In this document: piece after piece, positions 10,160-60,929 of the stretch
Layout: each line of letters opens with the position of its first letter
Numbering within the stretch: the stretch's first letter is position 1
Source of the DNA: Chloroflexota bacterium
GTDB taxonomy: Bacteria > Chloroflexota > Dehalococcoidia > Lucifugimonadales > UBA2985
Direction: 5' to 3'
Assembly (NCBI GenBank): GCA_027622595.1
Contig: JAQBZZ010000005.1
Location: 82-64,081, forward strand
DNA length: 64,000 nt
Program-made: the position numbers and the translations under genes
The notes under the pieces: generated by a model
What the model saw: only the letters and a program-made list of their open reading frames with translations
Told to the model about the DNA's origin: nothing
The model's database searches: none

Positions 10160-10180
10160 CTCCCTCTTCTAAGTGTGAAT

Positions 10181-10282
10181 GTCATTCCGAGGAACGTAGC
10201 GACGAGGAATCTAAAACCTTACTCTTTTAGGAAGGTGATGCGCCCTAGATTCCTCACTCCACTGCGCTGCGCTCGGAATGAC
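10181..10282. repeat. family-A palindromic MITE/REP-like element
   Basis: GTCATTCCGAGG..GCGACGAGGAATCT ... AGATTCCTCAC..GCTCGGAATGAC inverted arms. Related copies at 42367, 42731, 60758 and 13946. Confidence 0.8.
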
Positions 10283-10293
10283 AAAGGTATTTC

Positions 10294-10330
10294 CAGCTCG
10301 TCCTGAGCCTGTCGAAGGACATGAGCGGGG
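10294..10330. repeat. family-B repeat unit (GAGCCTGTCGAA core)
   Basis: Shares the 12-mer GAGCCTGTCGAA with units at 11438, 11578 and, in reverse complement, 15101. Confidence 0.6.
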
Positions 10331-10421
10331 ATAATTACTCCGCATTGACACCCCTATGGCCTTATCCTAAAATCCTAGCTACACTCAGCTTTGCAGCTTA
10401 TGCAGGCTGTTAGATAAAAAG

Positions 10422-13400
10422 ATGAAAAACTTGACCGGCGACGAGATAAGAGAGGCCTTTCTTCGCTTCTTTGAAAGCAAGGAACACCTGCGAATACCCA
10501 GTTCTTCGCTGATACCCGCAGCCGACCCCACGCTGTTGCTGACCAACGCGGGCATGGTGCAGTTCAAGCCATACTTCACCGGCGAGATGACTCCCACCGG
10601 CCCTCGCATGACCTCGGTGCAGAAATGCTTCCGTACCACGGATATCGACTCCGTTGGCGATGCCACCCACCTCACATTCTTCGAAATGCTCGGCAACTTC
10701 AGCGTCGGCGATTATTTCAAGCAGGAGGCCATCGCTTACGCATGGGAGTTCGTCACCGAGCATCTGAAACTCGAAAAAGAACGGTTGTGGGCGACGGTGT
10801 TCCTTGAGGACGATGAGGCCTTTCACATCTGGACGGCTACGGGTATACCTGCCGAACGCATTCGACGCTTTGGCGAGGCCGACAACTTCTGGGGGCCCGC
10901 CGGCAACGAAGGCCCCTGCGGCCCGTGCAGCGAGATACACTACGACTTCGGCGAGGGCCTCGGCTGCCAACAGCCCGACTGCGGCCCCAACTGCGAGAAT
11001 TTTGTAAATTTTGTAAATAACACTAGCCAGAAGTGCGACCGTTTCATGGAGCTGTGGAACCTGGTGTTCATGCAGTACTACCAGGCCCCGGACGGCTCCC
11101 GAACGCCTCTGCCCGCGCCCAATATCGACACCGGCATGGGCCTTGAACGGGCCGCCGTCATTCTCCAGGGCAAGCGCAGCATCTATGAGACGGATATTTT
11201 TGAGTCCCTTATAAAAAAGGTTGCTGACCTCTGCGGCAAAGAGTACGGCAAAGACCACGACACCGACTACGCCATCCGCGTTGTGGCCGAGCACGCACGC
11301 AGTGCCGCGTTCCTCATAAGCGACGGCGTGGTGCCGGGCAACGAGGGCCGTGACTACGTGCTGCGCCGTGTAATACGGCGTGCAATTCGTTATGGCAAGA
11401 AGCTGGGCCTGGAGGCCACCGTTAGTTCCGCTCATGGTGAGCCTGTCGAACCATACGAGCGGAATCAAGGTAACGCTCACGCCCTTCGACAAGCTCAGGG
11501 TGAGCGGGGAGAGGAACCCGCTCATGGTGATTTGTCCCATTCCGTTCGTGGCGTGCCACCCTCTTCCGCTCATGGTGAGCCTGTCGAACCACGAGCTGTG
11601 CTGCCCCAGGTGGCAGAGGTGGTGATAGAGCGCATGAAACCCCAGTACCCAGACCTTGAAGAACGCCGTGAGTTCATCTTACGGGTCATTGGATTGGAAG
11701 AGGAACGGTTTGGGGAAGTGTTTGAGCAAGGATATGGCATGGTTCTCGGAATGATTGCGCAACGTACTTCAAATCAACGTGCTGCTGAGGAATTCCAGTT
11801 ACAAGTGGGGATTGCAGCAGGATTTAGAGCAAGTAATAGAGACAGGATCGTAAATGCGATGGCGCCTATCTTCATGATTGTCCATTCGGAAGATGCGGCA
11901 TTTCAAGAGGGAGCCAGGTGGGCAAGTGGCGCGTTTCAGGATGCCTTTGCAGACGGACTTGACTCTTTAGAGTCCGGTGATGTAGGCCCGCTCCAATTTT
12001 TGGCAGCTCATTGGCCGCGACAAATCACTGGATCCGAGATGTTCGCTCTCTACGACACCTACGGGTTCCCGTCAGAGTTGACCCAGGAAATAGCTCGTGA
12101 GAATTATCTGGAAGTGGACATGGAAGGCTTCGAGAGGGAGATGGAAGCCCAACGCTCCCAGTCGCGAAGCGAGGGCAAAAAGTTCGGCGGTGACTTCGAT
12201 CAGATACGGGTCTATCAGGAACTGGGCGTCGGCTCAACCACGTTCCTCGGCTATGAGGCCCTCAGCGCAACGTCTGTAGTCGTCGGGTTACTCGCGGAGG
12301 GTCAGCCCGTGAACCGGGCCGCCGAGGGCGAAAAAGTAGAGGTGATTCTAAAAGAGACACCATTCTACGCCGAGATGGGCGGTCAGATGGGAGACGCGGG
12401 TGAGATAGTGGGGCAGGGAAGCACCCTGCGCGTTGAGGACACTCAGGCCCCCATTGCAGGACTCACCGTACACCGCTGCACCGTCGTAAACGGCAGCATA
12501 TCCATTGGCGATACGGTGGAGGCCGCGGTGGATGTGCAGCGTCGGCAGGACACGGCCCGCAACCACACTGCCACCCACATGCTCCACGCCGCATTGCGAC
12601 AGGTCCTCGGCTCACACGTTCGACAGCACGGCTCGCTGGTGACTCCCGACCGCCTTCGCTTCGACTTCACCCACGTCAGCCCATTATCCCAGGAAGAGCT
12701 GCGACAGGTGCAACGCCTCACCAACGAGAAGATACGGGAGAACATAACCGTGAGCTCCCGTGAGACCACGTACCGTCAGGCCGTCTCCCAGGGCGCGCTG
12801 GCTTTCTTCGGCGACAGGTACGGCGACCAGGTCCGTATTGTGGAGGTAGCCAACGGCGCCCCGTTCAGCCTTGAGGTGTGCGGCGGCACTCACGTCCACC
12901 GCACGGGCGACATCGGCTACTGCCACGTCGTGTCCGAGAGCAGCATCGGCTCGGGGCTCCGTCGTATCGAGGCCGTGACCGGCCGCGCCGCCGAAGCTCT
13001 TTTGTCACAGCACGCCGCATCCATAGAAGAAGCGGCCCATCGCCTACAGGTACCACCTGACGAACTGGTATCCAGCATCGACGCCAAGCTGGCTGAGATA
13101 GACCAGATTACAAAATGGGCCGAGACCCTGGAACGGGAACTGCTCAAACGGCAGGTGTCGGAGTTGGCCCGTACTGAGGTGTCCGGCGTAAGCGTCGTCT
13201 CCGGCGAGTTGAAGGTCTCCAATACAGAATTACTGCGTGAGGCCGGCGACTGGCTGAAGAACGAAATGAAAAGCGGCGTGGTTGTCCTAGGCACCGTTAT
13301 GGAAGGCCGGCCCTCAATGATGATCATGGCCACCGGAGACATCGTTGACCGGGGATTCCACGCCGGCAACGCGGTGAAGGAGGCGGCCAAGGCTATGGGT

Positions 13401-13517
13401 GGGGGCGGTGGTGGTCGTCCTGAGATGGCGCAGGCCGGAGGCCGTGAGCCGGGCAAGCTGAAGGATGCGCTGAGCGCGGCTGAGGAGGAGGTGAGGCGGT
13501 GGAGGGAGAAACTTTAA
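10422..13517 (+). CDS. alaS: alanine--tRNA ligase with two in-frame insertions
   Basis: 1031 aa. FFEMLGNFSVGDYF, editing-site HTATHMLHAAL and CGGTH, C-terminal GGGGGRPEMAQAGG. About 150 aa longer than E. coli AlaRS as I recall it. Confidence 0.95.
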   Translation: MKNLTGDEIREAFLRFFESKEHLRIPSSSLIPAADPTLLLTNAGMVQFKPYFTGEMTPTGPRMTSVQKCFRTTDIDSVGDATHLTFFEMLGNFSVGDYFKQEAIAYAWEFVTEHLKLEKERLWATVFLEDDEAFHIWTATGIPAERIRRFGEADNFWGPAGNEGPCGPCSEIHYDFGEGLGCQQPDCGPNCENFVNFVNNTSQKCDRFMELWNLVFMQYYQAPDGSRTPLPAPNIDTGMGLERAAVILQGKRSIYETDIFESLIKKVADLCGKEYGKDHDTDYAIRVVAEHARSAAFLISDGVVPGNEGRDYVLRRVIRRAIRYGKKLGLEATVSSAHGEPVEPYERNQGNAHALRQAQGERGEEPAHGDLSHSVRGVPPSSAHGEPVEPRAVLPQVAEVVIERMKPQYPDLEERREFILRVIGLEEERFGEVFEQGYGMVLGMIAQRTSNQRAAEEFQLQVGIAAGFRASNRDRIVNAMAPIFMIVHSEDAAFQEGARWASGAFQDAFADGLDSLESGDVGPLQFLAAHWPRQITGSEMFALYDTYGFPSELTQEIARENYLEVDMEGFEREMEAQRSQSRSEGKKFGGDFDQIRVYQELGVGSTTFLGYEALSATSVVVGLLAEGQPVNRAAEGEKVEVILKETPFYAEMGGQMGDAGEIVGQGSTLRVEDTQAPIAGLTVHRCTVVNGSISIGDTVEAAVDVQRRQDTARNHTATHMLHAALRQVLGSHVRQHGSLVTPDRLRFDFTHVSPLSQEELRQVQRLTNEKIRENITVSSRETTYRQAVSQGALAFFGDRYGDQVRIVEVANGAPFSLEVCGGTHVHRTGDIGYCHVVSESSIGSGLRRIEAVTGRAAEALLSQHAASIEEAAHRLQVPPDELVSSIDAKLAEIDQITKWAETLERELLKRQVSELARTEVSGVSVVSGELKVSNTELLREAGDWLKNEMKSGVVVLGTVMEGRPSMMIMATGDIVDRGFHAGNAVKEAAKAMGGGGGGRPEMAQAGGREPGKLKDALSAAEEEVRRWREKL
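11421..11597. repeat. family-B composite repeat element embedded in frame in alaS
   Basis: The 28-nt unit TTCCGCTCATGGTGAGCCTGTCGAACCA is perfect at 11426 and 11564, 138 nt apart. Two inverted units lie between them. Each unit holds a GCTCAnnnTGAGC mini-hairpin. Confidence 0.75.
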
Positions 13518-13945: not shown

Positions 13946-14087
13946 GTCACCCTGAGCAGAGCGAAGGGTCTGGCAGGGTTGGGGGCTCATCCCTGTAGCA
14001 CATAGTTGGAGGAGCTCCACCGCCAGGTTGCCACGCCCCGATTTCATTGGGGCTCGCTATGACATTGATAGCGACCCTCAGGGACAT
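13946..14087. repeat. diverged family-A-like palindromic element
   Basis: GTCACCCTGAGCAGAGCGAAGGGTCT at the 5' end. Inverted GCGACCCTCAGGGAC / GGGGCTCGCTATGAC at the 3' end. Confidence 0.5.
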
Positions 14088-15087: not shown

Positions 15088-15172
15088 CTTCGCTCGTATG
15101 GTTCGACAGGCTCACCACGAGCGGAGCGTGTTGATGTTCCGCTCACCATGAGCTTTGTCAGAGGGAGTGAAC
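15088..15172. repeat. family-B repeat pair (inverted units)
   Basis: GGTTCGACAGGCTCACCACGAGCGG followed by CCGCTCACCATGAGCTTTGTCAGAGGG, in the aroE-aroC spacer. Confidence 0.7.
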
Positions 15173-15217: not shown

Positions 15218-16468
15218 ATGCTACGCTTTCTAACCGCGGGGGAGTCCCACGGCAAAAACCTCACCGTCATTGTGGAGGGGATTCCCGCGAATCTCCCCAT
15301 CACGGAAGAGTTCATAGAGCGGCACATGGCCCGTCGGCAGGTTGGCTACGGTCGTGGGGGTCGTATGCAGATCGAGAAGGACCGCGCCGAGATACTCGCC
15401 GGCGTCCGACACGGGCTTACGATTGGTTCGCCCATATCTATGCTCGTCGTGAACAGGGACTTCACCACTGGCAAAGGCCCTGACGGCGTGCCCTGGATGG
15501 ATGAGATGAGCGTTGCCCCCTCCGATGTCCCCTTTGAGACCATAACCAGCATACGGCCGGGACATGCCGACACCCCGGGAATCGCCAAGTACATGCAGGA
15601 CGACGCCCGCAACATCCTGGAGCGTTCCAGCGCGCGGGAGAGCGCGGCCAGGGTCGCCGCGGGGGCACTGGCGCAACGGTTCCTTGAGGAGTTCGGCATT
15701 GAGGTGCACGGCCACGTGCTGTGTATCGGAGGCGTACACGCAAAGCCATCGGACAGCGTGGACTGGAACGCGCTGGAGGAATCGCCCTACCATCGTGAGA
15801 ACACCGAAGGCTCCAAGATGGCCGCGGTCCGCTGTGCCGACCCCGAGGCCGCCGAGCGGATGATCGTTGAAATAGACGCCGCGCGGGAGGCGGGCGACAG
15901 CGTGGGCGGCATAATAGAGATCGTTGCCACAGGAGCGCCCATCGGCCTTGGCAGCCATATCCAGTGGGACCGCAAGCTGACCAGTAAGCTGGCGGCTGCG
16001 GTGATGAGTATAAACGCGGTCAAGGGAGTGGAGTTCGGAGCGGGGTTTGCTCAGGCGGACATGCGGGGTTCTCAGGTGCACGATGTCGTCAAGCCATTGG
16101 ATGAGTGGGAGCGGGCCGCGGATGAAAGAATTGTGCGTCCCTGGCCCAGACGTAGCAACAACTCGGGCGGCCTTGAAGGCGGCATGACCACCGGCGAGCC
16201 TCTGGTTGTGAGGGCCATTGTGAAGCCTATTGCGACCATAATGAACGGGTTGGAGACCGTTGACCTGGCCACCGGCGGGTTCGTAGAGCGCGCCCACTTC
16301 GAGCGCAGCGACATCACATTTGTACCAACCTGCGCCGTCATCGGCGAGGCCATGGTCGCCCTGACGCTCGCGGACGCCATGCTTGAGAAGTTCGGCGGCG
16401 ACCACATTGAGGAGACCAAGCGCAACTGGCGCTCCTACATGGCTACCACATTGCCGCGAGGCCTGTAG
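15218..16468 (+). CDS. aroC: chorismate synthase
   Basis: 416 aa. FLTAGESHG, RPGHAD, SARESAARVAAGA, MSINAVKGVEFG. GAGGAG SD. Confidence 0.92.
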   Translation: MLRFLTAGESHGKNLTVIVEGIPANLPITEEFIERHMARRQVGYGRGGRMQIEKDRAEILAGVRHGLTIGSPISMLVVNRDFTTGKGPDGVPWMDEMSVAPSDVPFETITSIRPGHADTPGIAKYMQDDARNILERSSARESAARVAAGALAQRFLEEFGIEVHGHVLCIGGVHAKPSDSVDWNALEESPYHRENTEGSKMAAVRCADPEAAERMIVEIDAAREAGDSVGGIIEIVATGAPIGLGSHIQWDRKLTSKLAAAVMSINAVKGVEFGAGFAQADMRGSQVHDVVKPLDEWERAADERIVRPWPRRSNNSGGLEGGMTTGEPLVVRAIVKPIATIMNGLETVDLATGGFVERAHFERSDITFVPTCAVIGEAMVALTLADAMLEKFGGDHIEETKRNWRSYMATTLPRGL

Positions 16469-16490: not shown

Positions 16491-16952
16491 CTAGTTGGCC
16501 TTCGCTCTTGGCACCAGTTCGTAGCGGATCTCCCAGTCAACGTTCTGATTGAGTACCTCCAGGAAGTGCTCCATCTCTCCCTTGCCCCATAGGACACCGT
16601 TGAACAGGCAGGGGTACAGGCACACTTGGGCGTCTTCATCCAGTCCACCCATGACAGCATCCCGCAGGTCGGCACCCTCCATCTCCGCCCTGTGAAGGTT
16701 GGCGTCCGTCAGAGTGGCGCCCTTGAATCGAGCGCCCCGCAGGTCGGCCCGTGAGAGGTTGGCCTTTGTGAGGTCGGCCCCCTCAAAGTTCACATTGCTA
16801 AGGTTGACACGCAAAAGGGGAGCGCCCCGCAGGTCGGCACCCGACAGGTCGGCTCCGGACATATCTATCTTGGCGTTGGCGTCCTGCTTCCTCAACTCAT
16901 CGAACTCTGCAACGCTGCTGCGCAGGGCGGCGAGATACTGTTCGTTTTCCAT
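16491..16952 (-). CDS. pentapeptide-repeat protein
   Basis: 153 aa. Run of A(D/N)LxG-type repeats (ADLSGADLRGAPLLRVNLSNVNFEGADLTKANLSRADLRGARFKGATL). Confidence 0.85.
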   Translation of the reverse strand: MENEQYLAALRSSVAEFDELRKQDANAKIDMSGADLSGADLRGAPLLRVNLSNVNFEGADLTKANLSRADLRGARFKGATLTDANLHRAEMEGADLRDAVMGGLDEDAQVCLYPCLFNGVLWGKGEMEHFLEVLNQNVDWEIRYELVPRAKAN

Positions 16953-17052
16953 AGGTGAATCCTCCTCTTAAGATGCAAGATGTGAGCATTTTATCATATT
17001 GCACAGGGGTCTTTTGGCCTGCGCGTCAAGGGGCCAGTATAATGGCTGTCTT

Positions 17053-17124
17053 TGTGGGTGCAGGGTGTACCCTGCTTATGGGTGCAGGTCGTGCCCTGCT
17101 TGTGGGTGCAGGATCTACCCTGCT
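17053..17124. repeat. tandem array, 3 x 24 bp, each unit an internal palindrome GCAGG-N6-CCTGC
   Basis: The three units are tgtgggtgcagggtgtaccctgct, tatgggtgcaggtcgtgccctgct and tgtgggtgcaggatctaccctgct, directly adjacent to each other. Confidence 0.85.
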
Positions 17125-17171: not shown

Positions 17172-18308
17172 ATGGCTAGTAACACATCAAAAATAGGCCG
17201 CTATCGGCGCATCGTGGTCAAGGCGGGAACAAACGTCCTCACCGGTGGCGGCGACAGCCTCGACCTTGGCCTGATGGCCCGTCTGGTCGAGCAGGTGGCC
17301 GACCTTCACCTGTGGGGCATCGAAGTGCTGCTGGTGAGTTCCGGGGCCATCGCTTCAGGTGCGCAGGTGCTGGATATCGGAGGGCAGAGGGAGGACATCC
17401 CCTCCCGGCAGGCCCTCGCTGCGGTGGGTCAGAGCCGCCTCATGCACACCTACGAGCAGCTTTTTGAGAAACACAGCATCACCGTCGCCCAGGCTTTGCT
17501 TTCCCGTGAAAACATCACGGACCGGGAGGGATACCTCAACGTGAGGAACACGCTGCTGGCCCTGCTGGACTGGAAGGTCATTCCAATCATCAATGAGAAC
17601 GACGTGGTGGCCGTGGAAGAGATAGGGGTTGAGGTCTTTGGCGACAACGACAACCTCTCGGCTATGGTGGCCAACCTTGTGGACGCCGACCTTCTCATCA
17701 TGCTCAGCGACATTGATGGGCTGCACACCGCCGACCCTCACGAGAACCCGGACGCGAAACTCATCCCAAATGTAGAGCGCGTGGACGAGGCCATCGAATC
17801 CCTGGCCGGGGCTAACCACAGCTCAAGGAGCCGGGGCGGCATGCAGGCCAAGCTGGAGGCCATAAAGCTGGCAACGGCCTCCGGCGTCGCGGTGGCGCTG
17901 GTCAATGGCAGGGAGAACCGGGTTGTGCCACGCCTGACGGAAGGCGAATCTGTCGGCACCTTCTTTGCTCCAACCGGCAGCAAGGTGCAGAGCCGCAAGC
18001 GGTGGATGCTCAGTGGCCTGTCTACGCGGGGGCGCATAGTGGTTGATGACGGGGCTGCCGATGCCCTTCGCAGGAACCACGGCAGCCTGCTCCCCGCGGG
18101 GATAAAAGAGGTCGACGGACACTTCAAGCGGGGCGACATCATCCTGGTGGTTGGTTCGAGTGGAGAGCGTGTTGCATGCGGCATCGCCAGCTACGGCTCG
18201 GAGGACGTTGTCGCCATCAAGGGGCTGCGCTCCGACAGGATACGGGACGCCCTTGGCTACCAGTACGGCGAAGAGGTGCTCCACCGCAATAATATGGTAT
18301 TGTTGTAG
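17172..18308 (+). CDS. proB: glutamate 5-kinase with PUA domain
   Basis: 378 aa. RIVVKAGTNVLTG, amino-acid kinase fold, C-terminal PUA (GRIVVDDGAADAL). Confidence 0.93.
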   Translation: MASNTSKIGRYRRIVVKAGTNVLTGGGDSLDLGLMARLVEQVADLHLWGIEVLLVSSGAIASGAQVLDIGGQREDIPSRQALAAVGQSRLMHTYEQLFEKHSITVAQALLSRENITDREGYLNVRNTLLALLDWKVIPIINENDVVAVEEIGVEVFGDNDNLSAMVANLVDADLLIMLSDIDGLHTADPHENPDAKLIPNVERVDEAIESLAGANHSSRSRGGMQAKLEAIKLATASGVAVALVNGRENRVVPRLTEGESVGTFFAPTGSKVQSRKRWMLSGLSTRGRIVVDDGAADALRRNHGSLLPAGIKEVDGHFKRGDIILVVGSSGERVACGIASYGSEDVVAIKGLRSDRIRDALGYQYGEEVLHRNNMVLL

Positions 18309-42468: not shown

Positions 42469-42730
42469 ACGGGTTTTACCACCTACCATCTGAAAATCCC
42501 ACTCGACTACGGCATGTTCGCGGGCTAGAATAGGGCTGCGTGCAAAACCTGTTAATTGGGGGCAAATGGCATGGTCCACCGTTGGAGCGTGTACTGTGGC
42601 ACAGGGAGATATTGAGGGCGTAGGCTTTTCGAAAACTGATATGGAGGTCTGGAGAGAAGGCCAGGACTCTTGATACTTCCGTAGGAGAGGGCTCTGCGGC
42701 ATAGGAAGATTTTGAAGGCGTAGAGCTGTT

Positions 42731-42832
42731 GTCATTCCGAGGAGCGGAGCGGCGAGGAATCTTAGACAGATGCCTTTAACAAGAATAGTAGGCCCTAGAT
42801 TCCTCACTTCGCTGTACTGTGTTCGGAATGAC
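42731..42832. repeat. family-A palindromic MITE/REP-like element
   Basis: GTCATTCCGAGGAGCGGAGCGGCGAGGAATCTTAG ... CTAGATTCCTCACTTCGCTG..GTTCGGAATGAC. Confidence 0.8.
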
Positions 42833-42941
42833 ATTATGTAAACTTATGTTCATCGCTGAATTCAATGACGTGCGGGCGAATGCAGCCATCGCTGAGAGGA
42901 GCGGAATTGTCTCGAATGAGCTTTCGGATAGGAGGTAAGAG

Positions 42942-60757: not shown

Positions 60758-60878
60758 GTCATTCTGAGGAAGTCCGCCTACGGCGGATAACGAAGAATCT
60801 GGGGTGGGCCTTCGACGTGTCTCAGGGTAGCCCCGCTGCCCCAAACCCTTCGCCCGCCTGCGGCGGACTCAGGGTGAC
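60758..60878. repeat. diverged family-A palindromic element
   Basis: GTCATTCTGAGGAAGTCCGCCTACGGCGG..GAAGAATCT ... CGCCCGCCTGCGGCGGACTCAGGGTGAC. Confidence 0.65.
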
Positions 60879-60929
60879 ATGCTCAGTGGCGATTTTTAGG
60901 CAAAGCCGCACCCGGCTGGGATTTGCCGG

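Follow-up and report, generated by a model that had tools for sequence, protein, structure and literature searches.

The alaS gene in a 64,000-nucleotide stretch of a Chloroflexota bacterium genome (Dehalococcoidia, Lucifugimonadales, UBA2985; contig JAQBZZ010000005.1 of assembly GCA_027622595.1; the whole stretch is hereafter called the window) carries an in-frame cluster of repetitive extragenic palindromic (REP)-like units, which probably occupies a permissive loop of the encoded alanyl-tRNA synthetase (AlaRS) and is translated as a tolerated, disordered surface loop. A first-pass annotation had placed a repeat element in frame inside this essential gene, and the present analysis bears this out, with the alaS open reading frame (ORF) open across the whole insert without a stop and members of the same repeat family lying between genes. 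Its statement that canonical AlaRS is continuous at this position, with about 58 extra codons in the window, agrees with two alignments. Against the AlaRS of A. aeolicus, query residues 331 and 398 correspond to chain residues 313 and 321, leaving ~59 aa extra, and most members of an alignment of 60 homologues run continuously through KLGL(E/D)-xPFLxxV, as does the A. aeolicus enzyme.

The host gene is intact. Pfam assigns tRNA-synt_2c (E = 1.4e-177), tRNA_SAD and DHHA1 to its product, AlaRS catalytic fragments in the PDB match it (best E = 3e-118), and the nearest AlaRS proteins in a search among 5.8 billion proteins come from SAR202, Dehalococcoidia and Chloroflexota, at identities of ≤75%. 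In an AlphaFold2 model built from an 81-sequence alignment (mean predicted local distance difference test (pLDDT) score of 84, predicted template modelling (pTM) score of 0.70), residues 334–390 are coil with pLDDT values of 27–46, while the flanking helices (residues 309–327 and 393–405) both score >90. Structure modelling, which had been proposed as a check on a surface-loop position, thus predicts a disordered excursion between two confident helices.

Anatomy of the repeat cluster in alaS

The repeat unit in the window's genome is a 35–37-nt hairpin with an outer stem CCGCTC/GAGCGG, 3–5 variable base pairs and a conserved 13-nt loop, TGAGCYTGTCGAA (Table 1). The first-pass annotation had correctly recognised repeated units but made them too short, at 25–28 nt, and had described GCTCAnnnTGAGC as a mini-hairpin; this string is indeed enriched (4 occurrences in the window vs 0.14 expected) but forms part of the longer hairpin in this genome. 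The 28-nt direct repeat TTCCGCTCATGGTGAGCCTGTCGAACCA occurs twice without mismatch, 138 nt (46 codons) apart, as had been noted, and shuffled sequences gave no matches. A third copy with two mismatches lies on the minus strand at 15099–15126. The 13-nt core TGAGCCTGTCGAA (≤2 mismatches) is found at 10304, 11438, 11485 (−), 11576 and 15102 (−). Overall, the 64 kb contain 5–6 family copies, 3–4 of them inside alaS, and the relatives' loci contain 1–8 copies per 8–23 kb.

Within the insert, unit A1 is 97% complementary to the intergenic copy upstream of aroC and, folded as either RNA or DNA, adopts a bulged 14-bp hairpin at minimum free energy, and the inverted unit B is 83% complementary to the copy between hsp20 and alaS. 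Together, A1 and B constitute an inverted dimer of a type present in other genomes. Only this one inverted unit was found between the 28-mers, where two had been proposed; the remainder consists of a truncated direct copy and a 22-nt segment X. Segment X is matched elsewhere only in the alaS genes of two relatives (L002 and L003), where it precedes the first unit, whereas in the window it precedes the last. This shift in position points to rearrangement inside the cluster. The 3′ arm of the last unit, A2, matches the single-unit allele of another relative (L005), and loss of the sequence between the two 28-mers would shorten alaS by 46 codons, keep the frame and yield a single-unit allele resembling that of L005.

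The insert is more structured than shuffled sequences, though only moderately (RNA z = −2.4, DNA z = −2.8), and the strong mRNA structure first envisaged at this point was accordingly overstated. The encoded peptide is 58% E, A, G, P and S, lacks I, F, M, W, C and K entirely, and would release tryptic peptides including NQGNAHALR and GVPPSSAHGEPVEPR. Three of the six frames are open across the whole insert, and the antisense frame reads LTLSLSKG...WFDRLTMSG, containing the SLSKG and FDRLTMSG strings reported initially. A 387-aa antisense ORF overlapping alaS (10410–11573, minus strand) reads through the repeats in this frame; it is almost certainly spurious and an example of repeats seeding false gene calls.

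Table 1 Host gene, insert and repeat units of the family in the window.
Feature	Position (nt)	Strand	Sequence or translation	Basis
alaS (alanine–tRNA ligase), 1031 aa, intact host gene	10422–13517	+		ORF, Pfam and PDB matches
In-frame repeat-derived insert, aa 332–391, ~58 codons over empty-site orthologues	11415–11594	+	ATVSS...VEPR	PDB and 60-homologue alignments, relatives' DNA, pLDDT
Exact 28-nt direct repeat, first copy	11426–11453	+	TTCCGCTCATGGTGAGCCTGTCGAACCA	
Exact 28-nt direct repeat, second copy	11564–11591	+	TTCCGCTCATGGTGAGCCTGTCGAACCA	
Hairpin unit A1	11427–11463	+	TCCGCTCATGG / TGAGCCTGTCGAA / CCATACGAGCGGA, translated SAHGEPVEPYER	
Hairpin unit B, inverted, stem variant CCC/GGG	11474–11508	−	translated AHALRQAQGERG	core match with 1 mismatch
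Truncated 5′ part of a further unit, direct orientation	11518–11530	+	CCGCTCATGGTGA	read from sequence
Segment X, 22 nt	11542–11563	+	CCGTTCGTGGCGTGCCACCCTC, translated SVRGVPP	
Hairpin unit A2, degenerate 3′ arm	11565–11600	+	3′ arm CCACGAGCTGTG	
Intergenic family copy between hsp20 and alaS, stem variant TCC/GGA	10293–10327	+		
Intergenic family copy upstream of aroC	15091–15125	−		
Degenerate family copy, inverted pair with the copy upstream of aroC	15136–15160	+	CCGCTCACCATGAGCTTTGTCAGA	

The intergenic occurrence of the family, also part of the initial description, comprises the last three entries of Table 1, and one relative (L001) has an orthologous copy upstream of aroC at position 15340 of its locus. 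The window also contains other short repeats. A separate repeat of ~104 nt with 12-nt inverted ends (TGTCATTCCGAG...CTCGGAATGACA) and two hairpin halves is present at 10180–10283 and 42730–42833 (86–87% identity), the first copy ending 10 nt upstream of the family copy between hsp20 and alaS; with CGTC on its reverse strand, it may be a CGTC-type REP dimer. Additional short palindromic pieces in intergenic DNA (TGTCACCCTGAGCAGAGCGAAGGGT and ...CTCAGGGTGACA) at 13947–13968 and 60838–60879 suggest that the genome holds several REP families. A 24-nt unit with an internal palindrome, TTGTGGGTGCAGGGTGTACCCTGCT, is present in three tandem copies at 17052–17124, between a pentapeptide-repeat gene (16491–16952, minus strand) and a 378-aa ORF (17172–18308, plus strand), a putative proB by synteny with AA_kinase/PUA genes in the relatives' loci.

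AlaRS of the window has two further unusual regions. A second, lineage-specific extra segment of ~80 aa (aa 445–533, window 11754–12020) separates the helical tRNA-recognition part from the conserved GxExFxLYDTYGFP motif. The A. aeolicus enzyme and one homologue (P0012) lack it, and both its length and its sequence are hypervariable across SAR202-type relatives. Unlike the repeat insert, it is predicted to be helical (pLDDT 75–94), and no derivation from repeats is visible. The Cys-rich insertion of the catalytic domain contains an AT-rich 9-nt tandem duplication, AATTTTGTA twice (window 10998–11015), encoding NFVNFV (aa 193–198), which among the relatives is unique to the window, and extra repeat-like peptides occur in the same loop of P0005, P0009, P0016 and P0035.

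The alaS site in related genomes

Comparison with orthologues, which had been put forward as a check, showed that the insert site is empty in many relatives and variably filled in others. Among the closest of the 60 homologues, 11 have repeat-like extra peptides of very different lengths at the same position (P0001–3, 5–8, 10, 13, 15 and 17), one has extra residues that are not repeat-like (P0016), and five have no insert (P0004, P0009, P0011, P0012 and P0014). Because orthologues are variably empty or filled, and because family copies are present in the spacers of the window and its relatives, the segment is neither an ancient conserved AlaRS domain nor a single, non-repeated unit.

At the DNA level, we compared the alaS loci of 10 relatives from ENA, JGI and NCBI, representing at least four projects (one NCBI record being SAR202 cluster bacterium AC-647-N09). 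Gene order around alaS is largely kept, with ruvX, aroE and aroC downstream in most relatives and hsp20 upstream in six. Measured throughout as the stretch between conserved flanks, the allele is 189 nt in both the window and L002, 168 nt in L001, 129 nt in L003, 90 nt in L130, 78 nt in L004 and L129, 75 nt in L128, 60 nt in L005, 51 nt in L007 and 12 nt in L006, where the site is empty. All of these lengths are multiples of three, and none of the alleles contains a stop. The L005 allele holds exactly one complete hairpin (CCGCTCATGGTGAGCCTGTCGAACCACGAGCGG) and that of L007 resembles a deletion between GGTGAGC microhomologies. Units are arranged as X-A-spacer-B in L002 and L003 and as A-spacer-B-(truncated A)-X-A in the window, and the L002 allele terminates in a longer unit variant that is also found between genes. 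In three relatives (L128 11000–11027, L129 11003–11030 and L130 5540–5567), a perfectly palindromic, GTAG-tagged REP, GTAGGGGCGATTCATGAATCGCCCCTAC, translated as GAIHESPLP, is nested in the loop of an older unit. These are cases of REP-into-REP insertion, and the alaS site is a hot spot in which REPs are nested.

The alaS core (909 codons) of the window, L001, L002 and L003 is 75–79% identical in nucleotides and 55–62% identical at third positions; orthology of the insertion across species this far apart suggests that it is old rather than recent. Given that independent assemblies carry inserts at the same site, a chimera specific to the window is unlikely. A metagenome scan with the window-specific junction returned no matches, and one with the degenerate KKLGLEAT junction returned 13, all set aside as chance (12 L9-like proteins, read by eye, and one other unrelated protein, mostly from gut metagenomes).

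Units of this family have a second in-frame hot spot in the AlaRS editing domain, immediately ahead of FS(L/M)EVCGGTH. This site is empty in the window (12843–12893, ...EVANGAPFSLEVCGGTH), L001, L004 and L005, and carries a plus-strand unit in L003 (12595–12607, PAHGELVEP) and minus-strand units in L002 (12580–12592) and L007 (12283–12295), both read as PSTSSGQA.... The editing-domain units are independent insertions at one codon site.

The unit family across genomes and its known counterparts

Scanning GTDB representative genomes with CCGCTCRNNNTGAGCYTGTCGAA yielded at least 120 loci, with ~4 chance matches estimated in ~1.2e12 positions. Among the matches listed, the module CCGCTCR-NNN-TGAGCYTGTCGAA-N′N′N′ recurs across many phyla, including Dehalococcoidia, SAR202, many Sphingomonadales, Burkholderiales and other Betaproteobacteria, Acidobacteriota, Anaeromyxobacter, Thermodesulfobacteriota, Elusimicrobia, Binatia, Chlorobiota and Armatimonadetes; the Sphingomonadales matches include cultured isolates of Novosphingobium, Sphingomonas, Altererythrobacter and Qipengyuania. 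The consensus is cCCGCTCrnnnTGAGCyTGTCGAAn′n′n′, with a 3′ arm GAGCGG in Chloroflexota. In 285–287 copies the 5′ CCGCTCR and the 13-nt core are near invariant, partly as a result of a search pattern that fixed both. The inner 3-bp stem covaries, being fully complementary in 232 of 287 copies, in six triplet types, compared with a shuffle mean of 51, and the 3′ outer arm GAGCGG is present in 44 of the 287, being mostly missing outside Chloroflexota. Adjacent copies are mostly inverted, at a spacing of 27–63 nt.

The unit also lies in frame between Pfam domains of UvrA (L094 3889–3970, a Novosphingobium metagenome-assembled genome (MAG)), HrpB (L119 4115–4187, a Sphingomonadaceae MAG), UvrD (L033 1613–1625, a Dehalococcoidia MAG) and a DAO oxidoreductase (L036 2228–2295). 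In these proteins and at the two AlaRS sites, which together are the unit-carrying proteins with clear Pfam matches, the frames used are EPVE(P/G), STSSG and RQAQGER, and never the hydrophobic LSLSK/FDKLR. The latter occur in long ORFs without a Pfam match, which are probably spurious. A plasmid BLAST search gave partial, unannotated matches in three records, from Novosphingobium, Sphingobium and Nitratireductor. The module is absent from Rfam, and all-against-all clustering of the ORFs of 120 loci recovered only SDR, ABC, luciferase-like, SBP5, DEAD, CoA-transferase and hydrolase paralogues. Searchable literature gave only chance primer or unrelated matches to the loop sequence and repeat peptides, and literature on SAR202 repeats and on REPIN/RAYT in Sphingomonads yielded nothing specific. 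In the main text of Di Nocera et al. 2013 (PMC3733652), the strings GTCGAA, TGAGC and CGACAG do not occur, and three taxa looked for are likewise not named.

In-frame palindromic repeats in housekeeping genes are already established; the repeat family, the host lineage and the host gene are new. One precedent is provided by the Rickettsia palindromic elements (RPEs), palindromic repeats found in frame in Rickettsia housekeeping genes (Ogata et al. 2000 Science 290:347; PMC10969869, PMC3733652). RPEs resemble the window insert in lying in frame in functional genes and in being presumed to be translated as surface peptides compatible with folding, and they resemble the window unit in having many open frames and in belonging to families that are also intergenic. 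They differ in being ~100–150 bp long and hosted by AT-rich, obligate intracellular Alphaproteobacteria, whereas the window units are 26–37 nt, GC-rich, clustered or dimeric, and hosted by free-living, marine-type Chloroflexota. The window case works like an RPE but is not filed as one, unit size, GC content and host phylum setting it apart. We know of no sequence relationship between the window unit and RPEs.

A second precedent is the intragenic GTAG and CGTC REPs of Di Nocera et al. 2013 (PMC3733652), 20–40-bp stem-loops that are often arranged as inverted dimers or clusters and encode 20–82 aa (43–82 aa for clusters), with uvrA, uvrB and recB among the hosts and GlyRS-beta and IleRS in the supplement. 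Both that group and the window family are found in aminoacyl-tRNA synthetase and DNA-repair genes (here AlaRS, UvrA, UvrD and HrpB), and the repair and helicase hosts of the window unit echo the repair-gene bias reported for other REPs. The nested REP of L128–L130 fits the GTAG superfamily by its tag. Membership of the window unit itself was rejected, as neither tag is present at an end; unlike the end-tagged REPs, it is conserved in its 13-nt loop and 5′ CCGCTCR. It does have the form of a REP in the broad sense, a 20–40-bp imperfect palindrome able to form a stem-loop, with units of 35–37 nt of which A1 folds as a hairpin. REPIN/RAYT systems (Bertels & Rainey 2011, PMC3116915; PMC5581495) share with the window family inverted pairs of REP hairpins with a short spacer, near-identical copies per genome and long persistence. 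However, REPINs are described as extragenic, whereas the window module is intragenic too and is shared across phyla, and no RAYT was found in the window or in 1.1 Mb of loci. Finally, intragenic enterobacterial repetitive intergenic consensus (ERIC) and miniature inverted-repeat transposable element (MITE) sequences (Delihas 2007, via PMC10969869) are small mobile repeats with open frames fused to host ORFs; they measure 70–300 bp, are bounded by terminal inverted repeats and often carry target-site duplications, whereas no duplication or parent insertion sequence was seen for the window insert. The A1(+)/B(−) pair forms an 80-nt unit with inverted ends, but a MITE was rejected, there being no target-site duplication relative to the empty L006 site and no related insertion sequence among the sequences searched.

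Fate and maintenance of the insert

On the most probable interpretation, small REP-like palindromic units would have entered the loop between helices 309–327 and 393–405, where the tRNA-recognition helical domain begins, in an ancestor from which a SAR202-type Chloroflexota subclade descends. Transcribed and translated with alaS, the cluster would form a hydrophilic, disordered surface excursion of ~58 residues that the enzyme tolerates. It would be unstable, with gain, inversion and truncation of units, deletions between short homologies and invasion by the GTAG-type REP, and selection on the essential gene would pass only those versions that are in frame, free of stops and read in a hydrophilic frame. 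The initial annotation had left translation and removal side by side. Translation is strongly favoured, because all alleles keep the frame and lack stops, no intein or intron signature is present and the segment is predicted to be disordered between two helices. Searching proteins with the 57-aa insert peptide yielded a single weak match, of 69 aa, such a search being ill-suited to this query.

Several results weigh against this interpretation. Units A and B, compared across the window, L001, L002 and L003, are identical at 69–72 of 72 nt (96–100%) and at 22–24 of 24 third positions, which differs significantly from the third positions of the alaS core given above (Fisher p = 1e-5 to 1e-3), so their constancy lies at the level of DNA or RNA. 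A passive, neutral passenger would not predict such frozen third positions; homogenisation, in-situ replacement or function could. In addition, a neighbour-joining tree (916 ungapped columns) has a star-like shape in which filled and empty alleles are intermingled, and it fits one gain followed by losses as well as repeated gains. The frame-preservation argument is also partly circular, because the genomes were ascertained via full-length AlaRS calls. No RAYT or transposase was detected with an HUH...Y regular expression over the window and 127 loci (1.09 Mb), a search that a single-copy gene elsewhere in the genome would escape.

The frozen units would fit the hairpins being functional or actively maintained nucleic-acid elements, either a site of protein binding or cleavage or an mRNA structure affecting alaS, with the peptide as a by-product. 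The 10-nt spacer between A and B, identical at only 4–8 of 10 positions, favours this explanation, as do the recurrence of the module in many phyla and the complementarity of its inner stem. We nevertheless consider it unlikely. Equal conservation would arise with no function at the locus if other genomic copies converted the units or if units were re-inserted, and cluster content varies greatly between species, some relatives having no cluster, so alaS requires no fixed element. Furthermore, the insert has no Rfam family and folds only moderately better than shuffled sequences.

An adaptive role of the insert in the protein, as a new loop recruited for AlaRS interaction or regulation such as tRNA or partner binding, appears highly improbable. 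The site has remained occupied through the divergence of at least 10 species, the window and L002 alleles are of equal length despite unlike content, and the insert falls within the part of the enzyme that recognises tRNA. However, filled alleles range from 51 to 189 nt and their content has been swapped for other repeat families, close relatives with 65–71% identity have an empty site, and the peptide is predicted to be disordered, with conservation at the DNA rather than the peptide level. The same unit peptides also decorate unrelated proteins.

Removal of the segment (as an intron, an intein or by bypass between the 28-mers) or an assembly artefact is scarcely credible: the perfect 28-nt direct repeats could serve as matched take-off and landing sites, and repeats can confuse assemblers, but there is no stop to bypass, all alleles are open multiples of three, there is no Hint domain, no Rfam intron and the terminal residues are wrong for an intein, some relatives have one unit or other units without the duplicated 28-mer, and inserts occur in assemblies from independent projects. 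Each route was rejected individually. Pfam detected no Hint/intein domain in the window AlaRS, and the insert, at ~58 aa vs at least ~130 aa, starts with ATVSS and ends with VEPR|A, where an intein would begin with Cys, Ser or Thr and close with His-Asn ahead of Cys, Ser or Thr; 58 aa is far under mini-intein size. Neither a group I/II intron nor any other relevant RNA family was found in Rfam by gathering score or at E ≤ 5, the weak matches being limited to AaHKsRNA41 (19 bits; gathering score 97) and Acido-1 (18 bits; gathering score 50), and all alleles are in frame. Programmed translational bypass of the T4 gene 60 type would be purposeless, because the gap between the 28-mers is open. As to misassembly, assembly k-mers usually exceed 28 nt, which counts against the repeat as its cause.

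Setting these alternatives aside in favour of a translated, tolerated cluster leaves a wider possibility, which we put forward only tentatively, that the unit belongs to an undescribed cross-phylum hairpin superfamily whose sequence is actively maintained even in an essential ORF. If so, widespread sequence-specific machinery, or a conserved host function, would stand behind the unit. Such machinery may be a horizontally spread transposase or a homing or conversion system that re-targets existing copies, producing REP-in-REP hot spots as in alaS, and in-frame colonisation of housekeeping genes (AlaRS, UvrA, UvrD and HrpB) would be routine for the element.

The window insert extends to marine SAR202-type Chloroflexota a phenomenon tied mainly to Rickettsia and a few REP-rich Proteobacteria. 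It makes peptide strings such as EPVEP, LRQAQGER, STSSG, LSLSKG and FDKLR in MAG proteomes readable as repeat-derived, marking tolerated loops in real proteins and spurious ORFs elsewhere, which matters for annotation, domain-boundary calls and structure prediction. The alaS allele series, from the empty site through one unit and dimers to nested REPs, can serve the study of how repeat clusters grow and shrink under a reading-frame filter, and the nucleotide conservation of the module together with its spread across phyla raises the question of what maintains and moves it.

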